A stretch of DNA of 64,000 nucleotides, taken from the IMG/VR virus record IMGVR_UViG_2939521961_000009; one strand, 5' to 3'. The notes beneath the pieces were generated by a model that was not told where the DNA came from, ran no database searches, and worked only from the letters and a program-made list of their open reading frames with translations. The stretch comes from a virus. Taxonomy: Duplodnaviria > Heunggongvirae > Uroviricota > Caudoviricetes. The translations under genes were made by a program, and so were the position numbers. Below are positions 7,626 to 48,496 of this stretch, in pieces. The stretch's first letter is position 1. Each line of letters begins with the position of its first letter.

Positions 7626-8979
7626 TAATCACCTCCACTGAATGGCCTCCGGGAATGAACAGCGGATCAACAATACCGTTACGGCGCACAAAACGTTGCC
7701 AGCCGGTACTGTTCCCGGTGGCACGGTACAGGGTCACCAGTGCAGGCTCGGTGGTACGTACAGTCACTACTGTTGCACCGGGTAGCTGAACTCCCCGTGT
7801 ATTCAGATCCTCTGTCAGTGCCAGTCTGGCATCACGAAGCGTCAGCGCCGTGGCGGTATACCCCTGCCCGGACAGTGTCATCACCTGCCGTTCGAGCGCT
7901 TCGCTTAAGTCACGGTTAATGCGCTGAAGATCAACTGAACTTTCCAGCCAGACAGGCCAGGTACGGTGGGCTGCGTCACTGTCCGGCAGGGTTTCCTGAC
8001 TGAGAACCTGATCCAGCAGTTTTCCCACGGTCTGTGCCTGGGCCACCACGGCAGCACTCTGCATTACCGCCCGTATCAGACGAATATTCTTTTGTGCTGC
8101 CGGTGTCAGACCGATGAGAGTCTGCGGATTATCCTGCTCATCCAGCACGTAACGCAGGGAAGATAATGTCCTGTACAGTTGCGGCATTCCCTGAGAGACG
8201 GCGGATGTCGTCCGGCCGATACTGCCACCGGGCCGGGTATTCAGGCCTCCTGAAGACAGTGACGGCAGCGATGGCAGGGTGATCAGGGCACTGAAAAGCC
8301 CCGCAAAAGATGAGGCCATGCGGGAAGGTGCTGTCAGTAATGCCGTGGCATTCCCTTTCAGCGCCGTGAACGTGGCAGTAAAGGCACTGATATCCTGTAC
8401 AATCCCCATGCCGGAAACGGCATTTTCCAGGGCGGACACCTTATCGCTGATGGTTTCGGTCATTGCCTGGACATCGTGCATTCCGTCAGAAATCACCGTC
8501 CAGCCCGCTTCCAGGGTTTCAAAAACCTTCCCGAGCGCGGTGGTACTCTTCTGCTCCAGAATGGCGGCCGTGTCCTGTGTGACAGCAGGTGCGGTATCAT
8601 CACTTACCGGCGTGACATTAATGGTGAACTCAACCACGCCCTGTTCAGCAGCGTTATAACGACTTTCAAAGCTGTTTATCAGCACATTTAACGTGCCGTA
8701 ATCCGGGTGAAGCAGCTCCCCGGCACCGGGAGCACGAAGGGCATCACGCAGACGATTTCGCTGTGTCTGAACATCATCCCCCATCACAAGTACACTGAAC
8801 GTAAATTCAGCCAGTTTAGGTCCCAGATCGTCTGCACCACCGGTTTCCCGTAACGGATATTCCCGACGGACAATGTTTCGCCCGCCACGTTCGCGCTGCT
8901 CACGCCAGACGAGGAACGGCACACCACGGAACGCACCACGACCGTCACCAGAGGCCATAATTCCCTCCGTTCCAGACAT
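7609..8979 (-). CDS. DNA circularisation protein N-like (Mu gp43-like)
   Basis: 456 aa; immediately downstream of tape measure gene. Confidence 0.75.
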   Translation of the reverse strand: MSGTEGIMASGDGRGAFRGVPFLVWREQRERGGRNIVRREYPLRETGGADDLGPKLAEFTFSVLVMGDDVQTQRNRLRDALRAPGAGELLHPDYGTLNVLINSFESRYNAAEQGVVEFTINVTPVSDDTAPAVTQDTAAILEQKSTTALGKVFETLEAGWTVISDGMHDVQAMTETISDKVSALENAVSGMGIVQDISAFTATFTALKGNATALLTAPSRMASSFAGLFSALITLPSLPSLSSGGLNTRPGGSIGRTTSAVSQGMPQLYRTLSSLRYVLDEQDNPQTLIGLTPAAQKNIRLIRAVMQSAAVVAQAQTVGKLLDQVLSQETLPDSDAAHRTWPVWLESSVDLQRINRDLSEALERQVMTLSGQGYTATALTLRDARLALTEDLNTRGVQLPGATVVTVRTTEPALVTLYRATGNSTGWQRFVRRNGIVDPLFIPGGHSVEVISEQQG

Positions 8980-35985: not shown

Positions 35986-36203
35986 CAGAACCTCGCCAGC
36001 CGGTACCCGGGATGCCCCCGTCGTCGTGTAATCAGAGCCGCAAGGCGGCGCTCCCACTCCTGCCGTCCCTGCCGGATCTCAGATAAGTTTTCCATGGTCA
36101 TCTGCTGACCATTAAAGGTGACGGATTTTCCGTCCAGCACCGCCATTTCAGCTTCCGTATAACGCTGAATCATGGCTTCGATATCATTCTGGTTCATAAC
36201 CAT
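35985..36203 (-). CDS. Head-tail joining protein W-like
   Basis: 72 aa ending ...RRRGHPGYRLARF, located between terminase A and portal. Confidence 0.65.
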   Translation of the reverse strand: MVMNQNDIEAMIQRYTEAEMAVLDGKSVTFNGQQMTMENLSEIRQGRQEWERRLAALITRRRGHPGYRLARF

Positions 36204-38293
36204 CCTCCGGAAGTCAGCCAGGGGTTAACATCGTCAGTTACTGTTTTCTTCCGTTTTTGTTTTTTAACAGGCGTGGATACCGGTTCCGGTGAGGATGACG
36301 GTTCGGTACTGTCCTGGACACACTCCAGCCAGGTCTCCCGGCTCGCCCACTCCGGTGCATCCGGCCAGCGGATCTTTTCGTATCCATGCAGAATGACCAG
36401 AGCCTCGGCATACACCATCAGGTCAAAAGCTTCGTTGGCACCGCGACCCGGCTTACTCCATTTCCCGTCACTGCTCCGCTCTTCATACGTCAGTTCGTCG
36501 TAAAACCAGCTCCCCAGCCAGTCAGGGAAATGCACATAGCCTGGACCTGGCGAGTCACGCCATAACGCGTTATTCACCCGGTCTTTCAGGGCATCCGTCT
36601 GAAGAAGCCAGAGCGGCACATCACCTGCGGCCTGCGCCCGGCGGCCCGTTCGTCCGGTGTTATCAGGGAATGTACGGCTGATCAGTTTTGCGCGCCGGAT
36701 GCTGTCACCCTTAAACAGGTAAATACGTTTACCAAGGCCATCACGACGGCAACGACGCCAGAATTTATAGGCATTATCAGTGACCCCGTCTTCACCGCCG
36801 GAGTCCACCGCCATTGCCATCAGTCGCATTTGTTGAGAAGGATCGGAGGCCAGCGGCCAGCTTTTATGAAAAACATCCGTCAGCAGGACATCCCAGTCTT
36901 CCGGATAGCTGGCCGGATCAATTCGCTGGCTCTCCCCGTCGCAGTCACTGCGCAATGACTGCGTGATGTTGTAACGATCAATAATCCAGCGTTCGCCACG
37001 ACTGCCATAGCCCGTTACCTGAACCACAAAACGGCGATGACGTCCCGCCTGCACATCCACTGTCGCCACAAGGAAATTAACGCCATCCGGCACACTGCGG
37101 GAAGGAACTGGCTCTGCCCGCTGCTCAAGCAGTTCACTTTTTCGTTGCTCCATGCTGGCACGAGGAAGATAAGGCAATCCCCAGTCGGTGTTGATAACCG
37201 CCCTGAGTGTTTCTTCGCTTCCTGTCGCTTCATACTCCTGTTCTGCAGTCAGTAATTTGTAAACCAGTTGCGCCCAGGTCTGATACGCAGCAGCTGGCCC
37301 TTCCATCCAGAAACTGGCGATACGGGAGCGGCGCGGTTCACCGGAAACGTTGCCGTTACGATCAATGACCTGACCTTCACGCAACCAGACTCCTGCACTA
37401 TTGAGCTCACGCTTTTTCTCCGCAGTGATAATGCCGCTGCAGTGCGGGCAAAGTAGATACGCCGCCTCACTGGCTTTAAAGGGATCCGGTTCATTACGGT
37501 AGCCGGTCATGGCATCCATGGCTGGCTGAAAATATTCACCGCAGTGCGGACATGACCAGTACCAGCGGCGGCGGTCACCACGATTGTAAAGGGAAAGAAT
37601 ACCAGTCGTCGGTGGCGCTTCATGAGGCGACTTACGTCGCCATTTGCTGTCGCAGATGTCACGTCCCGGCGAGCTCTCCACCAGAGTCATCCCAGCGGAC
37701 ATAAATGTGGTGGTACGTTTTGAGGCCAGGGAGAAACCATCACCCTCGCTGTCGATATTCTCCGGAAAACGGTCGTAATCGGTTAAGGCGACAAACCGGT
37801 AATCCGACGACGACATAATGTTGACCGAGGGCCAACCAATTTTAAGGAACGAGCCATCCCTGAACGTCTTATCATGGACATTATTGTCGTTACGACGTGG
37901 ACTCATTCTTTTCTTTACCGCCGCACTGCTTCTGAACGTTCTGTCGAGGCGCTTTTTAGAATGCTCGCGGGCCTTATCTTCGGTCATCTGCACAACGAGC
38001 ATGTCCGAAGGATCGCAAACGATGGTATAGACAATCCATCCATCGATCAGACCAATGGTCTTCCCTGTTCGCGCAGGACCAACAAAAATCACCGCATCGT
38101 ATTCACGCGATGCCAGGCAGTTCATGGGCTCAATGATGTAGGGTGTCAGTTCAGGATCCCATGGCACCGAGTTACCAGCCCCCTTGGGAACACGCATGAA
38201 TTTTTTAACAGCCTCCGAAATCGGCATGCGACGTGGTGGGGAAAATCCTGCCGATATGTCCCTTCCCAAATTTCGGGCTGATGAAAAACCCAT
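36194..38293 (-). CDS. Terminase large subunit (lambda gpA-like)
   Basis: 699 aa; Walker A GPARTGKT. Confidence 0.9.
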   Translation of the reverse strand: MGFSSARNLGRDISAGFSPPRRMPISEAVKKFMRVPKGAGNSVPWDPELTPYIIEPMNCLASREYDAVIFVGPARTGKTIGLIDGWIVYTIVCDPSDMLVVQMTEDKAREHSKKRLDRTFRSSAAVKKRMSPRRNDNNVHDKTFRDGSFLKIGWPSVNIMSSSDYRFVALTDYDRFPENIDSEGDGFSLASKRTTTFMSAGMTLVESSPGRDICDSKWRRKSPHEAPPTTGILSLYNRGDRRRWYWSCPHCGEYFQPAMDAMTGYRNEPDPFKASEAAYLLCPHCSGIITAEKKRELNSAGVWLREGQVIDRNGNVSGEPRRSRIASFWMEGPAAAYQTWAQLVYKLLTAEQEYEATGSEETLRAVINTDWGLPYLPRASMEQRKSELLEQRAEPVPSRSVPDGVNFLVATVDVQAGRHRRFVVQVTGYGSRGERWIIDRYNITQSLRSDCDGESQRIDPASYPEDWDVLLTDVFHKSWPLASDPSQQMRLMAMAVDSGGEDGVTDNAYKFWRRCRRDGLGKRIYLFKGDSIRRAKLISRTFPDNTGRTGRRAQAAGDVPLWLLQTDALKDRVNNALWRDSPGPGYVHFPDWLGSWFYDELTYEERSSDGKWSKPGRGANEAFDLMVYAEALVILHGYEKIRWPDAPEWASRETWLECVQDSTEPSSSPEPVSTPVKKQKRKKTVTDDVNPWLTSGGWL

Positions 38294-38301
38294 TATTCCT
38301 C

Positions 38302-38859
38302 CTAGAGACTCTCTCCTTCCTCATCAGGAATTAATTCAGCAGCACAAGCCTCGTAGGATTTTTCCTGAAGAGTGTATCGCAGGTCATCAATGGCCTGCTG
38401 TACAACGCCGACGGCCTGAGGAGTCAGGGCGCAATCGCGTTCAAGAACATCCGGAATTGTCTCCAGAACCTGGACGACAGCCTTTCTCATGGACGAATAG
38501 ACGATGACTACTTCATCAACGGGGATGAGTTTTCGCTGCTCCTTTTCCAGCTTGATCCTTTCATTTTCAGATTGGTACCAGTCCTTTCTCTCTTTCGGCT
38601 CCATACGGGATGGATCATGAACAGAGTCTGCTGCCTCATGCTTCACACTAAACAGGGCTGGCCCGACATGCTGCAGGGCGTAAACGGGGTTCCCCCTGAC
38701 AGTCGCAGCCACAGGAGTGTTAGCCGCGAGGAGCCGTTTTTTTACTGTGTCCCGGTGAAGCCCAAAGGCCTCAGCGATTTTAAAAACACTCCAGTAATAA
38801 GCATCACCGATCCCGCTCACATTTGACATAAGCAACTCCATCTGGCAGGTGAAAATCAT
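38302..38859 (-). CDS. Terminase small subunit (Nu1/NohA-like)
   Basis: 185 aa, N-terminal HTH, upstream of gpA. Confidence 0.8.
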   Translation of the reverse strand: MIFTCQMELLMSNVSGIGDAYYWSVFKIAEAFGLHRDTVKKRLLAANTPVAATVRGNPVYALQHVGPALFSVKHEAADSVHDPSRMEPKERKDWYQSENERIKLEKEQRKLIPVDEVVIVYSSMRKAVVQVLETIPDVLERDCALTPQAVGVVQQAIDDLRYTLQEKSYEACAAELIPDEEGESL

Positions 38860-39008
38860 GTTTATTTATATATTTCAATTAATTGCAAACTGGTCTAATG
38901 ACAGGGAGAAAGAAATATTGTACAGGTGAAAAGAGAAATAACTTTTAATTATCAATAAATTACCAAACATGCTGCCGCCGCCATGGAAATGCAAAAACTA
39001 GCCTTTTT

Positions 39009-39026
39009 CCGCGACGCTCCCGCCCC
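39009..39026. other. Putative cosN-like cohesive-end site
   Basis: Minus strand reads GGGGCGGGAGCGTCGCGG ~150 bp upstream of Nu1, resembling lambda GGGCGGCGACCTCGCGGG. Confidence 0.4.
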
Positions 39027-39050
39027 GTGGCAGGGGCCCCCACCGGGAGG

Positions 39051-39075
39051 ACCCGACAGCCTGACAGCCTGACAG
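39051..39075. repeat. Triple direct repeat GACAGCC adjacent to putative cos
   Basis: gacagcctgacagcctgacagcc. Confidence 0.7.
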
Positions 39076-39213
39076 CCGTGATGAGCATCTGATACAGCGC
39101 TTTACATAATGGCATAGGAATAATTCAGAAGGACATCACAGCATGCCCACACAAATTAGTGTGAGTGTCCTGTTTCTTCCTACGCACAGGACTGACGAGC
39201 ATGAGGGGAAAAT

Positions 39214-39384
39214 ATGCGAACCATAAATGCCTCATCTTCAGCAATGCAACCGGCATCCGAACAGGACGATATTGTAAATTCACCTAATTACGAGGACATT
39301 GCAGTAGTTGAATTGCAGCTCTGTATTAGCCTGACAGTGACAGAATGCGATATTGACTCTGTCACAGGTGAAATAGTTTGAATG
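39214..39384 (+). CDS. Hypothetical small protein (56 aa)
   Basis: ATG preceded by GAGGGG; below ORF-track size cutoff. Confidence 0.3.
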
Positions 39385-39401
39385 ATTAGCAGTTATGGTG
39401 C

Positions 39402-39608
39402 TCAGTCAACCACCAGGGAATAATCCTTCGAATTCTTATCGTGCTTCACCAACGCTGCCTCAATTGCCCTGAATGCTTCCAGAGACACCTGATGTTCTAT
39501 ACATGCAATTACAACATCCGGGTAACTCATAGAAATGGTGCTATTAAGCATATTTTTTACACGAATCAGATCCAACGAGACTTCATCAGCAGATTGTTCT
39601 TTATTCAT
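39402..39608 (-). CDS. YbcW-like small protein
   Basis: 68 aa [39 protein letters not shown]... Confidence 0.6.
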
Positions 39609-39908
39609 TTTGTCGCTCCATGCGTTTGCTCGTCATCTAGCGGTTAAAATATTACTTCAAATCTTACTGCATAAAAGAGGAAAAGTATGAAAGTTTGAGT
39701 ACATCGACCTTACATACATCTGTCGGTTGCATATCCCTCCTGGATGCCAGCAAGGCTCAATTTTGTTACGCAATCAACACTATTCATTAAAAACAGGCTT
39801 AATATTTGACATAAATCATCAACAAAACACAAAGAGGTCAGACCAGATTGAAACAATAAACACGATAATGCTAACTACGCGCCATCGTATCACATGGAAG
39901 GTTTACCA

Positions 39909-40319
39909 ATGGCTCAGGCTGCCATTTTTAAAGAAATATTCGATCAAGTGCGTAAAGATTTAAACTGTGAATTATTTTATTCTGAGCTAAAACGTCACAA
40001 TGTCTCACTTTATATTTACTATTTAGCCACAGATAATATTCACATTGTGTTAGAAAACGACAACATAGTGTTAGTAAAAGGACTCAAAAAGGTTGTAAAT
40101 GTTAAATTCTCCAGAAACAAACATCTTATAGAGACCTCCTATAATAAGTTGAAATCAAAAGAAATCACATTTCAACAATACAGGGAAAATCTTGCTAAAG
40201 CAGGAGTTTTCCGATGGGTTACAAATATCCAGGAACACCAAAGATATTACTATGCCTTTGATAACTCATTACTATTTACTGAAAGCATCCAGAAAACTAC
40301 ACAGATCTTACCACGCTAA
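39909..40319 (+). CDS. DUF1398-family protein (YdfO/YbcV-like)
   Basis: 136 aa from [11 protein letters not shown]...; ORF track start at 39894. Confidence 0.65.
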
Positions 40320-40470
40320 ACCATAACGTCCGGCTTCTCTCACTCCTGAGCCGGACTGCATTGGTTTAATAAAAACCATCAACAATTGTGATTTAGATAT
40401 TCGGAACCATTCAAATATAACAAAACCCCGAAAAAACGAGGTTTATGGATAAATTTTATTATTGAATACA

Positions 40471-40644
40471 TCAGATTAAATTAATCTTGACATCATAGCT
40501 TTCAAGACCCGTCATTTTTTCCCGTGCGGTAAACTGAATACTGGTAACTTCTTTCCCGGTCTTTTTCTTAAGTTCAATAATTTTTTTTGTTATATATTCA
40601 GAAATATCTGCTTCTGCTTTTGTTTTTAAGTTTTCAATATTCAT
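40471..40644 (-). CDS. gnsB: GnsB-like small protein (57 aa)
   Basis: Manual translation MNIENLKTKAEADISEYITKKIIELKKKTGKEVTSIQFTAREKMTGLESYDVKINLI; below ORF-track cutoff. Confidence 0.65.
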   Translation of the reverse strand: MNIENLKTKAEADISEYITKKIIELKKKTGKEVTSIQFTAREKMTGLESYDVKINLI

Positions 40645-40815
40645 CATTTCCTCTTTTAGTCTGTTATGACTTTCCAGTTACACAGTAAGTCGATTATATG
40701 GTGCAAACGTGTAAAAGATAAGATGAAACATCGCAATAATCAACATACGATAGTCTAAATTTTACACAAACAGACAAAGAGAATTTTCCTGAATTATCAA
40801 TACAATAGCATCAAA

Positions 40816-41046
40816 TCAACTCAAGAGCCTTATTGCTGCTTCCAGAATTTCTTCTGAAGTAACATGTCGATCCGCGGCTACATAAATGACTTTATGATCT
40901 CCGGTCAGAGATGGAAACCCTGCGGCCATTACAGTAAGGTGTGTTTTTTCGCCATTTGGATATTCACGCATGATGGTGTTAACTCCAGTCATCGCTGGCA
41001 CTACCACTGCTGGTTCAGAGTTAAAAAAAACTATGATTTTTTTCAT
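40816..41046 (-). CDS. Hypothetical small protein (start at MKKIIVFF)
   Basis: ORF track 40816..41088. Confidence 0.4.
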   Translation of the reverse strand: MKKIIVFFNSEPAVVVPAMTGVNTIMREYPNGEKTHLTVMAAGFPSLTGDHKVIYVAADRHVTSEEILEAAIRLLS

Positions 41047-41090
41047 GATGTTACCGTAGTATGTGAGTATCCATCGAATAGATACCAAGC

Positions 41091-41113
41091 AAAAAAGCTC
41101 CCGAAGGAGCCTT
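41091..41113 (-). terminator. Rho-independent terminator candidate
   Basis: Minus strand AAGGCTCCTTCGGGAGCTTTTTTG hairpin plus T-run. Confidence 0.5.
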
Positions 41114-41317
41114 CATTTTCACTTTTTTAAATCCAACGACAGACGGCTGGCATTTAAGTATTGTGAAATATTATCAAATGTAATCATCATTGATTTACAA
41201 AAGATACATTTTGCCCCGAAAGGATTCATGTCAGAAACATCAAAAGATGATGTTCTATACTGGGAACCATGACAACACGGGCATCTAAAGTGAATATGGT
41301 TTGTAATATTGTCTACC

Positions 41318-41530
41318 TCAAAGCGCCACTACATGAACAGCGGCAGGACCTTTAGGTCCGTTCTCAATACCAAATTCAACTTCCTGATTCTCAGTTAATG
41401 TTTTGAAATCGTTGCTCTGAATTGCTGAGAAATGGACAAACACATCTTTGCTGCCATCTTTCGGCGTGATGAAACCAAAACCTTTTTCAGGGTTAAACCA
41501 TTTCACTAAACCAGTCATTTTGTTAGACAT
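41318..41530 (-). CDS. cspI: Cold-shock protein CspI-like
   Basis: 70 aa [42 protein letters not shown]... Confidence 0.9.
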
Positions 41531-47911: not shown

Positions 47912-47981
47912 TTAAGTGCGGGTGCGTTGAGGATGCCTGCCACATCAGAGGTGGCGAGGGATTTCTCCCCCGCCGGGTCTC

Positions 47982-48137
47982 TTACTCCTCAGGTTCGTAA
48001 GCTGTGAAGACAGCGACCTCCGTCTGGCCGGTTCGGATTCGTACCTCGCAGAGGTCTTTCCTCGTTACCAGTGCCGTCACTATGACGGTTAAACAGATGA
48101 CGATCAGGGCGATTAACATCGCCTTTTGCTGCTTCAT
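47982..48137 (-). CDS. hokD: Hok-family membrane toxin (HokD/RelF-like)
   Basis: Manual translation MKQQKAMLIALIVICLTVIVTALVTRKDLCEVRIRTGQTEVAVFTAYEPEE; 51 aa below ORF-track cutoff. Confidence 0.85.
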   Translation of the reverse strand: MKQQKAMLIALIVICLTVIVTALVTRKDLCEVRIRTGQTEVAVFTAYEPEE

Positions 48138-48208: not shown

Positions 48209-48496
48209 TCAGAGAATGCGTTTGACCGCCTCGCTATATACTTCCGAGCGTTCTCTTTTCCCAACAGAAATCACGAAAACGACAACTTTCTCGTCTATAA
48301 CCTGGTATACAAGGCGATAGCCTGAAGACCGGAGCTTAATCTTGTAACAATCAGGCATACCACGGAGCTTGTTTGCTTCAATCCGGGGTGACTCAAGTAC
48401 TTCAACCAGCTTCTTTTTCAACTGTTCACGTACCGTCGAGCCCAGCTTTCGCCATTCCTTTAGTGCCCGCTCGTCAAAATCCAGAAAATACGCCAT
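48209..48496 (-). CDS. relE: RelE mRNA interferase toxin
   Basis: 95 aa MAYFLDFDERALKEWRKLGSTVREQLKKKLVEVLESPRIEANKLRGMPDCYKIKLR... Confidence 0.9.
   Translation of the reverse strand: MAYFLDFDERALKEWRKLGSTVREQLKKKLVEVLESPRIEANKLRGMPDCYKIKLRSSGYRLVYQVIDEKVVVFVISVGKRERSEVYSEAVKRIL

Follow-up and report, generated by a model that had tools for sequence, protein, structure and literature searches.

The region of the window (the whole stretch of 64,000 nucleotides analysed here) lying just upstream of the terminase genes is, with a probability of about 85%, where a lambda-like prophage of the Qin/Tritos type, read on the minus strand, has its cohesive-end (cos) site, and packaging most likely does not depend on the triple repeat adjoining it. 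At cos, the phage's own orientation is that of the minus strand. The elements of the site and the neighbouring terminase genes are collected in Table 1. This cos site is ordinary, already known in kind, and does not change the understanding of cos packaging; at least two phage records are already opened at it, and its cosN allele and that of Gifsy-1 differ by a single base.

Table 1. Features of the cos region and of the adjoining terminase genes (positions in the window; a slash marks a predicted nick).
Feature	Position	Strand	Remarks
Tandem 8-bp repeat, GGCTGTCA GGCTGTCA GGCTGTC	39055..39077	-	directly adjoins cosQ; outside the functional cos core
cosQ-type heptamer, GGGTCCT	39048..39054	-	first base 29 nt upstream of the predicted top-strand nick
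cosN, CG / GGGCGGGAGCGT / CG	39012..39027	-	register from homology
I2-like segment, CGGAAAAAGGCTAGTTTTTG	38992..39011	-	conserved core portion from cosN to cosB; putative equivalent of lambda I2, by position
cosB, class A	38860..38991	-	AT-rich, specific to this small-terminase type; presumed small-terminase binding region
IHF-consensus site, TATCAATAAATTA (WATCAANNNNTTR)	38950..38962	+	perfect match; at +64 to +76, counted from the left end
R-like site (candidate for the small terminase), TTTCACCTG, copy 1	38923..38931	-	core of TTTTCACCTG, at about +95; speculative
R-like site (candidate for the small terminase), TTTCACCTG, copy 2	38846..38854	-	at about +172; overlaps the possible TerS start region; speculative
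Small terminase subunit (TerS), DUF1441 / phrog_141 type	38302..38829	-	alternative starts at 38841 and 38859; 175-185 aa
Large terminase subunit (TerL), gpA family, ATPase and endonuclease domains	36194..38293	-	699 aa

cosQ, cosN and the predicted cohesive ends

A sequence-only reading of the window had pointed to an 18-mer on the minus strand that resembles the lambda cohesive-end region, and had placed a putative cos site at 39009-39075. The 18-mer is present (GGGGCGGGAGCGTCGCGG, at 39024-39007), and both the cosN call and its orientation hold: the site corresponds base for base to those of lambda, Gifsy-1 and LLS/mEp213, it lies directly upstream of the genes for TerS and a gpA-type TerL, and two GenBank records open there. 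The proposed span is in the right place, but about 2 nt short at each end. Similarly, the resemblance to lambda is present, but it had been aligned one base out of register, the first G belonging to the ...ACG flank; when the two sequences are set in register, 13/17 of the positions from +1 to +17 match lambda. The cosQ heptamer, located between the 18-mer and the repeat, had been missed.

The heptamer GGGTCCT is identical in lambda, Gifsy-1, LLS, cdtI, Tritos, mEp213, VT1-Sakai, CP-1639 and a Klebsiella phage. It is separated from cosN by a G+C-rich spacer of 21 nt, and in 115 of 119 instances it begins 29 nt before the nick, compared to 30 nt in lambda. It also forms the sharp left edge of a conserved block (see below). 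The 7-bp cosQ is known to be highly conserved and to be required for termination (Feiss et al. 2015).

On the phage strand, the cosN junction reads ...CCACG / GGGCGGGAGCGT / CGCGG..., with the 12-mer at 39025-39014. By homology, nicks are predicted at 39026/39025 on the phage strand and at 39014/39013 on the complementary strand, which would leave the 12-nt 5' overhang GGGCGGGAGCGT. When phage records are searched by megablast, that of Tritos (OV696610, linear) ends at 39026 and that of cdtI (AB285204) begins at 39025, the Tritos paper not stating how its record ends were set. Both records thus start with GGGCGGGAGCGT... on the left and finish with ...CCACG on the right, in the same register as ...TTACG / GGGCGGCGACCT in lambda. 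The overhang differs from that of lambda at bp 7, 8, 9 and 11 only (8/12 matches), bp 1-6 being identical, and the CG dinucleotides on both sides of the cosN nicks are conserved. In natural lambda-like cos sites, variation is seen in bp 7-12, and both cosQ and the nick-flanking CG dinucleotides are conserved (Feiss et al. 2015). The cosN call is thus supported, because the ends of the Tritos and cdtI records coincide with it and because the differences in the overhang are confined to the part that is known to vary. The two-fold symmetry of cosN is partial, with 8/16 positions here and in LLS, and 10/16 in lambda and Gifsy-1. Altogether, the site has several of the attributes of lambda-like cos sites as defined by Feiss et al. 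(2015), namely cosQ, the CG dinucleotides with their symmetry, variation within bp 7-12, and adjoining genes for TerS and a gpA-family TerL; the sequence of its predicted end, with 8/12 matches to lambda and 11/12 to Gifsy-1, also agrees with that group.

A close comparison for cosN is Gifsy-1, a member of the lambda-like group of Feiss, whose cos reads GGGTCCT-N23-ACG / GGGCGGCAGCGT / CGC, which reproduces what Feiss et al. (2015) state. Its cohesive end GGGCGGCAGCGT matches GGGCGGGAGCGT at 11/12 positions, bp 7 being the one that differs, and cosQ and the flanking CG are the same. In contrast, Gifsy-1 has Nu1, gpA and head genes of the lambda/21 type and another cosB, whereas the terminase and head genes of the window are of the Gifsy-2/cdtI type. 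Tritos, cdtI, mEp460 and LLS/mEp213 are lambdoid phages in which the small terminase is of the DUF1441 type and the heads are Gifsy-2-like. In Tritos, cosQ-cosN-I2-cosB is identical and is accompanied by the same triple repeat, whereas cdtI, identical in cosN and in its small terminase, lacks the repeat. LLS/mEp213 display the same architecture, with an overhang GGCGGCGCGCT preceded by G (GGGCGGCGCGCT), and in the LLS record GGGCGGCGCGCT, the 12 nt homologous to the overhang of the window, is labelled a 5' cohesive site. LLS differs from the window by the lack of the repeat, and its DUF1441-type small terminase is 41% identical to that of the window. Its overhang was inferred in the LLS paper, with reference to Vahanian et al. 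2017 and to M. Feiss, and the nanopore reads of LLS virion DNA left out the ends around the cos site (LLS paper).

One further record, mEp460_4F5 (LR595868.1), starts 5 nt before the predicted nick (CCACG/GGGCGG..., positions 1-36) and, compared to mEp460, misses 3 nt just after the overhang region. This start is probably an assembly-end artefact at a cohesive end, and it is set aside as evidence for the nick. A literature search for the overhang, on either strand, did not retrieve a phage paper, nor did a search for physical mapping of virion DNA ends retrieve any for this phage group.

Terminase genes and prophage context

The two genes downstream of the site encode the subunits of a terminase. 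TerL matches Pfam GpA_ATPase (4.2e-80) and GpA_nuclease (1.8e-86), is also called a terminase by PHROGs, and is 24% identical to lambda gpA (E = 3e-22). TerS matches Pfam DUF1441 (1.9e-44) and phrog_141, annotated as 'terminase small subunit' (7.9e-65), and the protein is 100% identical to the small terminase of cdtI. The sequence-only reading had put a Nu1-like gene about 150 bp from the 18-mer, and the distance is right, since the 18-mer ends 148 nt upstream of the start of the longest ORF (38859). The three candidate ATGs are found 167, 185 and 197 nt downstream of the predicted left end, 39025, and Nu1 of lambda starts at bp 191. As for the term Nu1-like, it holds for a remote profile similarity (phrog_57, the Nu1 family, 1e-9) but not beyond, as Pfam gives DUF1441 alone and BLASTP against Nu1 gives E = 4.6. 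The reciprocal PHROG cross-matches between phrog_141 and phrog_57 (1e-9 and 5.6e-8) suggest that TerS is, at most, remotely homologous to Nu1. A shallow hhalign comparison of TerS with Nu1 gives a probability of 5.8%, a PDB sequence search with TerS gives no match, and the single-sequence AlphaFold model of TerS (pLDDT 44.6) is too poor for fold comparison.

Over a 601-nt region including the site, the identity is 100% to a Qin-like prophage in E. coli O26:H11 str. 11368, and likewise to many other genomes, among them several labelled O26; matches to at least a part of this region are found in 2724 of the 5426 complete E. coli genomes searched. In the late region of the O26:H11 11368 prophage, the cold-shock genes cspB, cspF and cspI are found between the Q antiterminator and cos. 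An Rfam match to the cspA thermoregulator, at 41287-41500 on the minus strand of the window (77.7 bits for a gathering score of 78, and running off the end of the searched stretch), sits where this identical prophage has cspI. At the cos site itself, neither the Rfam scan of 38000-41500 nor a scan for promoters and terminators gives any match.

The site might be a cos by descent that persists as a relic without function, the Qin-like prophage being defective (cryptic) and no longer able to package DNA. Many defective lambdoid prophages are found in EHEC genomes, and the neighbourhood does resemble that of the cryptic Qin prophage of K-12, with ydfT/U, rem, hokD, cspB/F/I, essD, rrrQ, rzpQ and gnsB. 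However, the terminase, portal, protease-capsid fusion and tail genes are intact in RefSeq and carry no pseudogene flag, and an identical cos core is found in Tritos, which is active and makes virions and plaques. We therefore consider a relic to be improbable, and a cos site of a lambda-like prophage remains the preferred reading.

The cos feature is not annotated in RefSeq. A 51-aa ORF (38960-39115, minus strand) runs over cosN, cosQ and the repeat; it is rejected as a gene, as it has no Pfam match and as 8-bp indels would shift its frame. The intervals homologous to this ORF are labelled 'hypothetical protein' in the HannyBb, mEp460, mEp213 and PhiR40_1 records. The ORF almost certainly reflects a gene called spuriously across cos.

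A conserved core joined to exchangeable cosB segments

The exact 22-mer over the nick is found in at least 120 IMG/VR contigs. Among 90 distinct flanking sequences, conservation is at least 95% between about -29, where GGGTCCT begins, and about +34, and collapses beyond either limit. To the left of GGGTCCT, several wholly unrelated sequences adjoin the core. To its right, three unrelated cosB intervals are found, each with its own small terminase: class A, the type of the window (41 instances), class B (55) and class C (18). Pfam confirms DUF1441 for the class B small terminase. cosB diverges completely among the three classes, the cosQ-cosN-I2 core being constant; mEp460-type (class B) and class C phages thus differ from the window by their cosB and by their small terminase.

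The right part of this core, which after cosN reads AAAAAGGCTAGTTTTTG and reaches about 38992, includes the I2-like segment, at least 95% conserved over the three unrelated cosB/small-terminase classes to about +34, where divergence begins. In lambda, I2 lies between cosN and cosB and is needed for termination (Feiss et al. 2015). The arrangement is the modular one known from lambda, 21 and N15, in which a common cosQ, cosN and I2, read by the large terminase, are joined to alternative cosB segments read by the cognate small terminase (Feiss et al. 2015); the window differs from these phages by its cosN allele and its small-terminase family.

In cosB, the site at 38950-38962 is one of only two perfect matches to the IHF consensus in the 64-kb window. 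IHF matches (8 or 9 of the 9 specified positions) are found on the same strand at +62 to +64 in classes A, B and C and in LLS, and at +79 in lambda. This site is a candidate for the equivalent of lambda I1. By contrast, a search of cosB for a lambda-style set R3-I1-R2(inverted)-R1 gave weak AT-rich repeats only, with no inverted R2-type site. A simpler cosB is compatible with membership of the lambda-like group, as exemplified by N15 (Feiss et al. 2015).

Speculative binding sites for TerS are offered by TTTCACCTG, which occurs three times in the window, always on the phage strand (38846, 38923 and 39365) and within 530 nt, for 0.68 occurrence expected in the whole window. Copies 1 and 2 are in the same orientation, unlike the inverted R2 of lambda, and copy 1 is not strictly conserved, its common class-A variant being TTTTCAGCTG. 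The third occurrence (39365-39373, minus strand) lies 340 nt upstream of the nick, in a stretch that is 87% identical to lambda 47946-48090, where lambda has TTTAGTCTG.

Taken together, the window and lambda share GGGTCCT about 30 nt before the nick, the frame ...ACG/GGGCGG....../CGCGG with overhang bp 1-6, CG dinucleotides at both nicks, a partial two-fold symmetry, an IHF site in cosB, a small-terminase gene starting some 190 nt away from the left end (lambda, 191; window, up to 197) and a gpA-family TerL encoded next. They differ by overhang bp 7, 8, 9 and 11, by the distance from cosQ to the nick (29 and not 30 nt), by cosB, which is unrelated in the window and devoid of recognisable R3/R2/R1, and by TerS, which is of the DUF1441 type (phrog_141) and not Nu1 (phrog_57).

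Another arrangement of the core is found in the IMG/VR record IMGVR_UViG_2574179916_000005, which has two cos cores 8.1 kb apart (91-112 and 8226-8247). Downstream of the first core come a class-B small terminase, a truncated TerL reduced to the ATPase domain, an integrase, an AAA_25 protein and SSB; the second is followed by a degenerate class-A cosB that runs straight into the protease-capsid fusion gene. This record may correspond to a satellite or island inserted in the terminase gene of a prophage, reminiscent of cos capture by PICIs, or to a rearranged remnant.

A variable tandem repeat beside cosQ

The triple GACAGCC repeat announced by the sequence-only reading is present, as GACAGCCTGACAGCCTGACAGCC on the plus strand at 39055-39077. 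Tandem Repeats Finder describes it as an array of period 8 with 2.9 copies, 100% matches and a score of 46, and its 23-mer is unique in the window and found in 0/100 shuffles. The number of units adjoining cosQ varies among 121 instances with an identical cosN: 28 have none, one has a single unit, 84 have two and 8 have three. A targeted scan shows that alleles with four and with five units also exist, and that alleles with 2, 3, 4 and 5 units have identical flanks. The array thus has the properties of a variable number tandem repeat (VNTR), with perfect head-to-tail units and copy-number polymorphism between otherwise identical alleles.

The same reading had proposed that the repeat, together with cosN, forms part of the flanking terminase-recognition elements, and it could indeed be imagined as an extra small-terminase or termination site. 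It directly adjoins cosQ, two units are found in 84/121 of the sampled instances, and CTGTCA-like hexamers are also found in class-A cosB (CCCTGTCATT, ACCTGTACAA) and about 250 nt upstream. Several results nevertheless speak against this proposal. The copy number ranges from 0 to 5 with identical cosN and flanks, and it is independent of the small-terminase/cosB class, all three classes being seen with 0, 2 or 3 copies. cdtI has no repeat, despite a TerS that is 100% identical and a cosB that is about 98% identical (226-nt match). Furthermore, the sequence to the left of GGGTCCT is unrelated in several lineages, a period of 8 bp does not keep phase with the DNA helix, and the outermost element required in lambda is cosQ (Feiss et al. 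2015). We consider a recognition role of the repeat to be very unlikely: the actual flanks of cosN are cosQ on one side, and the I2-like segment and cosB with its IHF site on the other side.

As the copy number varies, as cdtI does without the repeat and as the array lies outside the conserved block, we regard the repeat as a VNTR and not as a recognition element. Most likely, it is prone to slippage, is carried along in a single lineage of right-end sequence and is dispensable for packaging. There is an outside chance, slimmer still than that of a recognition element, that the GGCTGTCA array (0 to 5 copies) is not neutral, and that it tunes the terminating cut or the processivity of packaging, or offers a site to a host or satellite factor. 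Such tuning could, for example, go through the altered DNA context or spacing met by the translocating terminase just before cosQ. If the array were not neutral, copy-number slippage would act as a heritable dial on phage yield.

Other lineages have a different sequence at this position. The ~20 nt that immediately precede cosQ form a palindrome, (A)TGATAATCATTATCA, in lambda (~48450-48470), at the right end of cdtI, and in mEp213, VT1-Sakai, CP-1639 and the Klebsiella phage Kp4865-4. About 16/19 of its positions fit the E. coli Fur-box consensus. In the window, in Tritos and in the mEp460 lineage, the GGCTGTCA repeat takes the place of this palindrome.

Similarity to lambda and chance

When the comparison is unguided, resemblance to lambda does not by itself exceed chance. 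No match to the lambda 18-mer is found in the window at up to 3 mismatches, and an unguided local alignment of the lambda cosQ-cosN core with the window gives a score of 23 at the site, for a null of 24.4 +/- 1.8, with a higher-scoring tile elsewhere in the window. Conversely, the pattern GGGTCCT-N18-22-ACGGGGCGG, which was picked after both sequences had been seen, occurs once in the window, at the cos site, and in 0/100 shuffles. Chi sites (GCTGGTGG) are not informative as a marker of cos orientation, their strand and position bias in the window (6 sites for 2.5 expected) not being significant. As the raw similarity to lambda is not significant, the case for cos rests on structure, position and comparison. 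The notion that the lambda resemblance is a chance match of G+C-rich sequence, DNA being packaged by headful (pac) or from a cos located elsewhere, can draw on the two unguided searches, but it is already largely refuted and keeps next to no credit, given a structured pattern that is unique in the window and absent from the shuffles, the Gifsy-1 and LLS/mEp213 intermediates that bridge the site to lambda, a block conserved between mosaic flanks, the coincidence of phage record termini with the site, and a TerL of the gpA family, a group that makes 5' cohesive ends.

Proposed packaging mechanism

By analogy with lambda, packaging could proceed as follows: (i) the DUF1441-type TerS would bind the AT-rich cosB (~38991-38860), assisted by IHF, which would bend the DNA at 38950-38962; (ii) this binding would set the gpA-type TerL on cosN; (iii) TerL would introduce nicks 12 bp apart, at 39026/39025 and 39014/39013, generating the 5' overhang GGGCGGGAGCGT; (iv) packaging would then run toward the terminase and head genes, that is, toward lower window coordinates; and finally (v) at the next cos on the concatemer, cosQ (39054-39048), cosN and the I2-like segment would trigger the terminating cut. 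In this scheme, we infer the positions of the nicks, the polarity of the overhang, the roles of cosQ, I2 and IHF, and the TerS binding sites. The transfer of the lambda mechanism is an extrapolation, because TerL is only 24% identical to gpA and TerS has no significant pairwise similarity to Nu1.

Implications

The cos interval is left blank in RefSeq and in most phage records, or is covered by spurious small ORFs. The value of the present assignment is one of annotation, as cos, the probable overhang of 12 nt (GGGCGGGAGCGT) and the direction of packaging are fixed for a type of prophage that is common in E. coli. Finally, our results reveal that one cosQ-cosN-I2 cassette is common to at least three cosB/small-terminase specificity classes, which bears on the prediction of which phages and satellites could cross-package.
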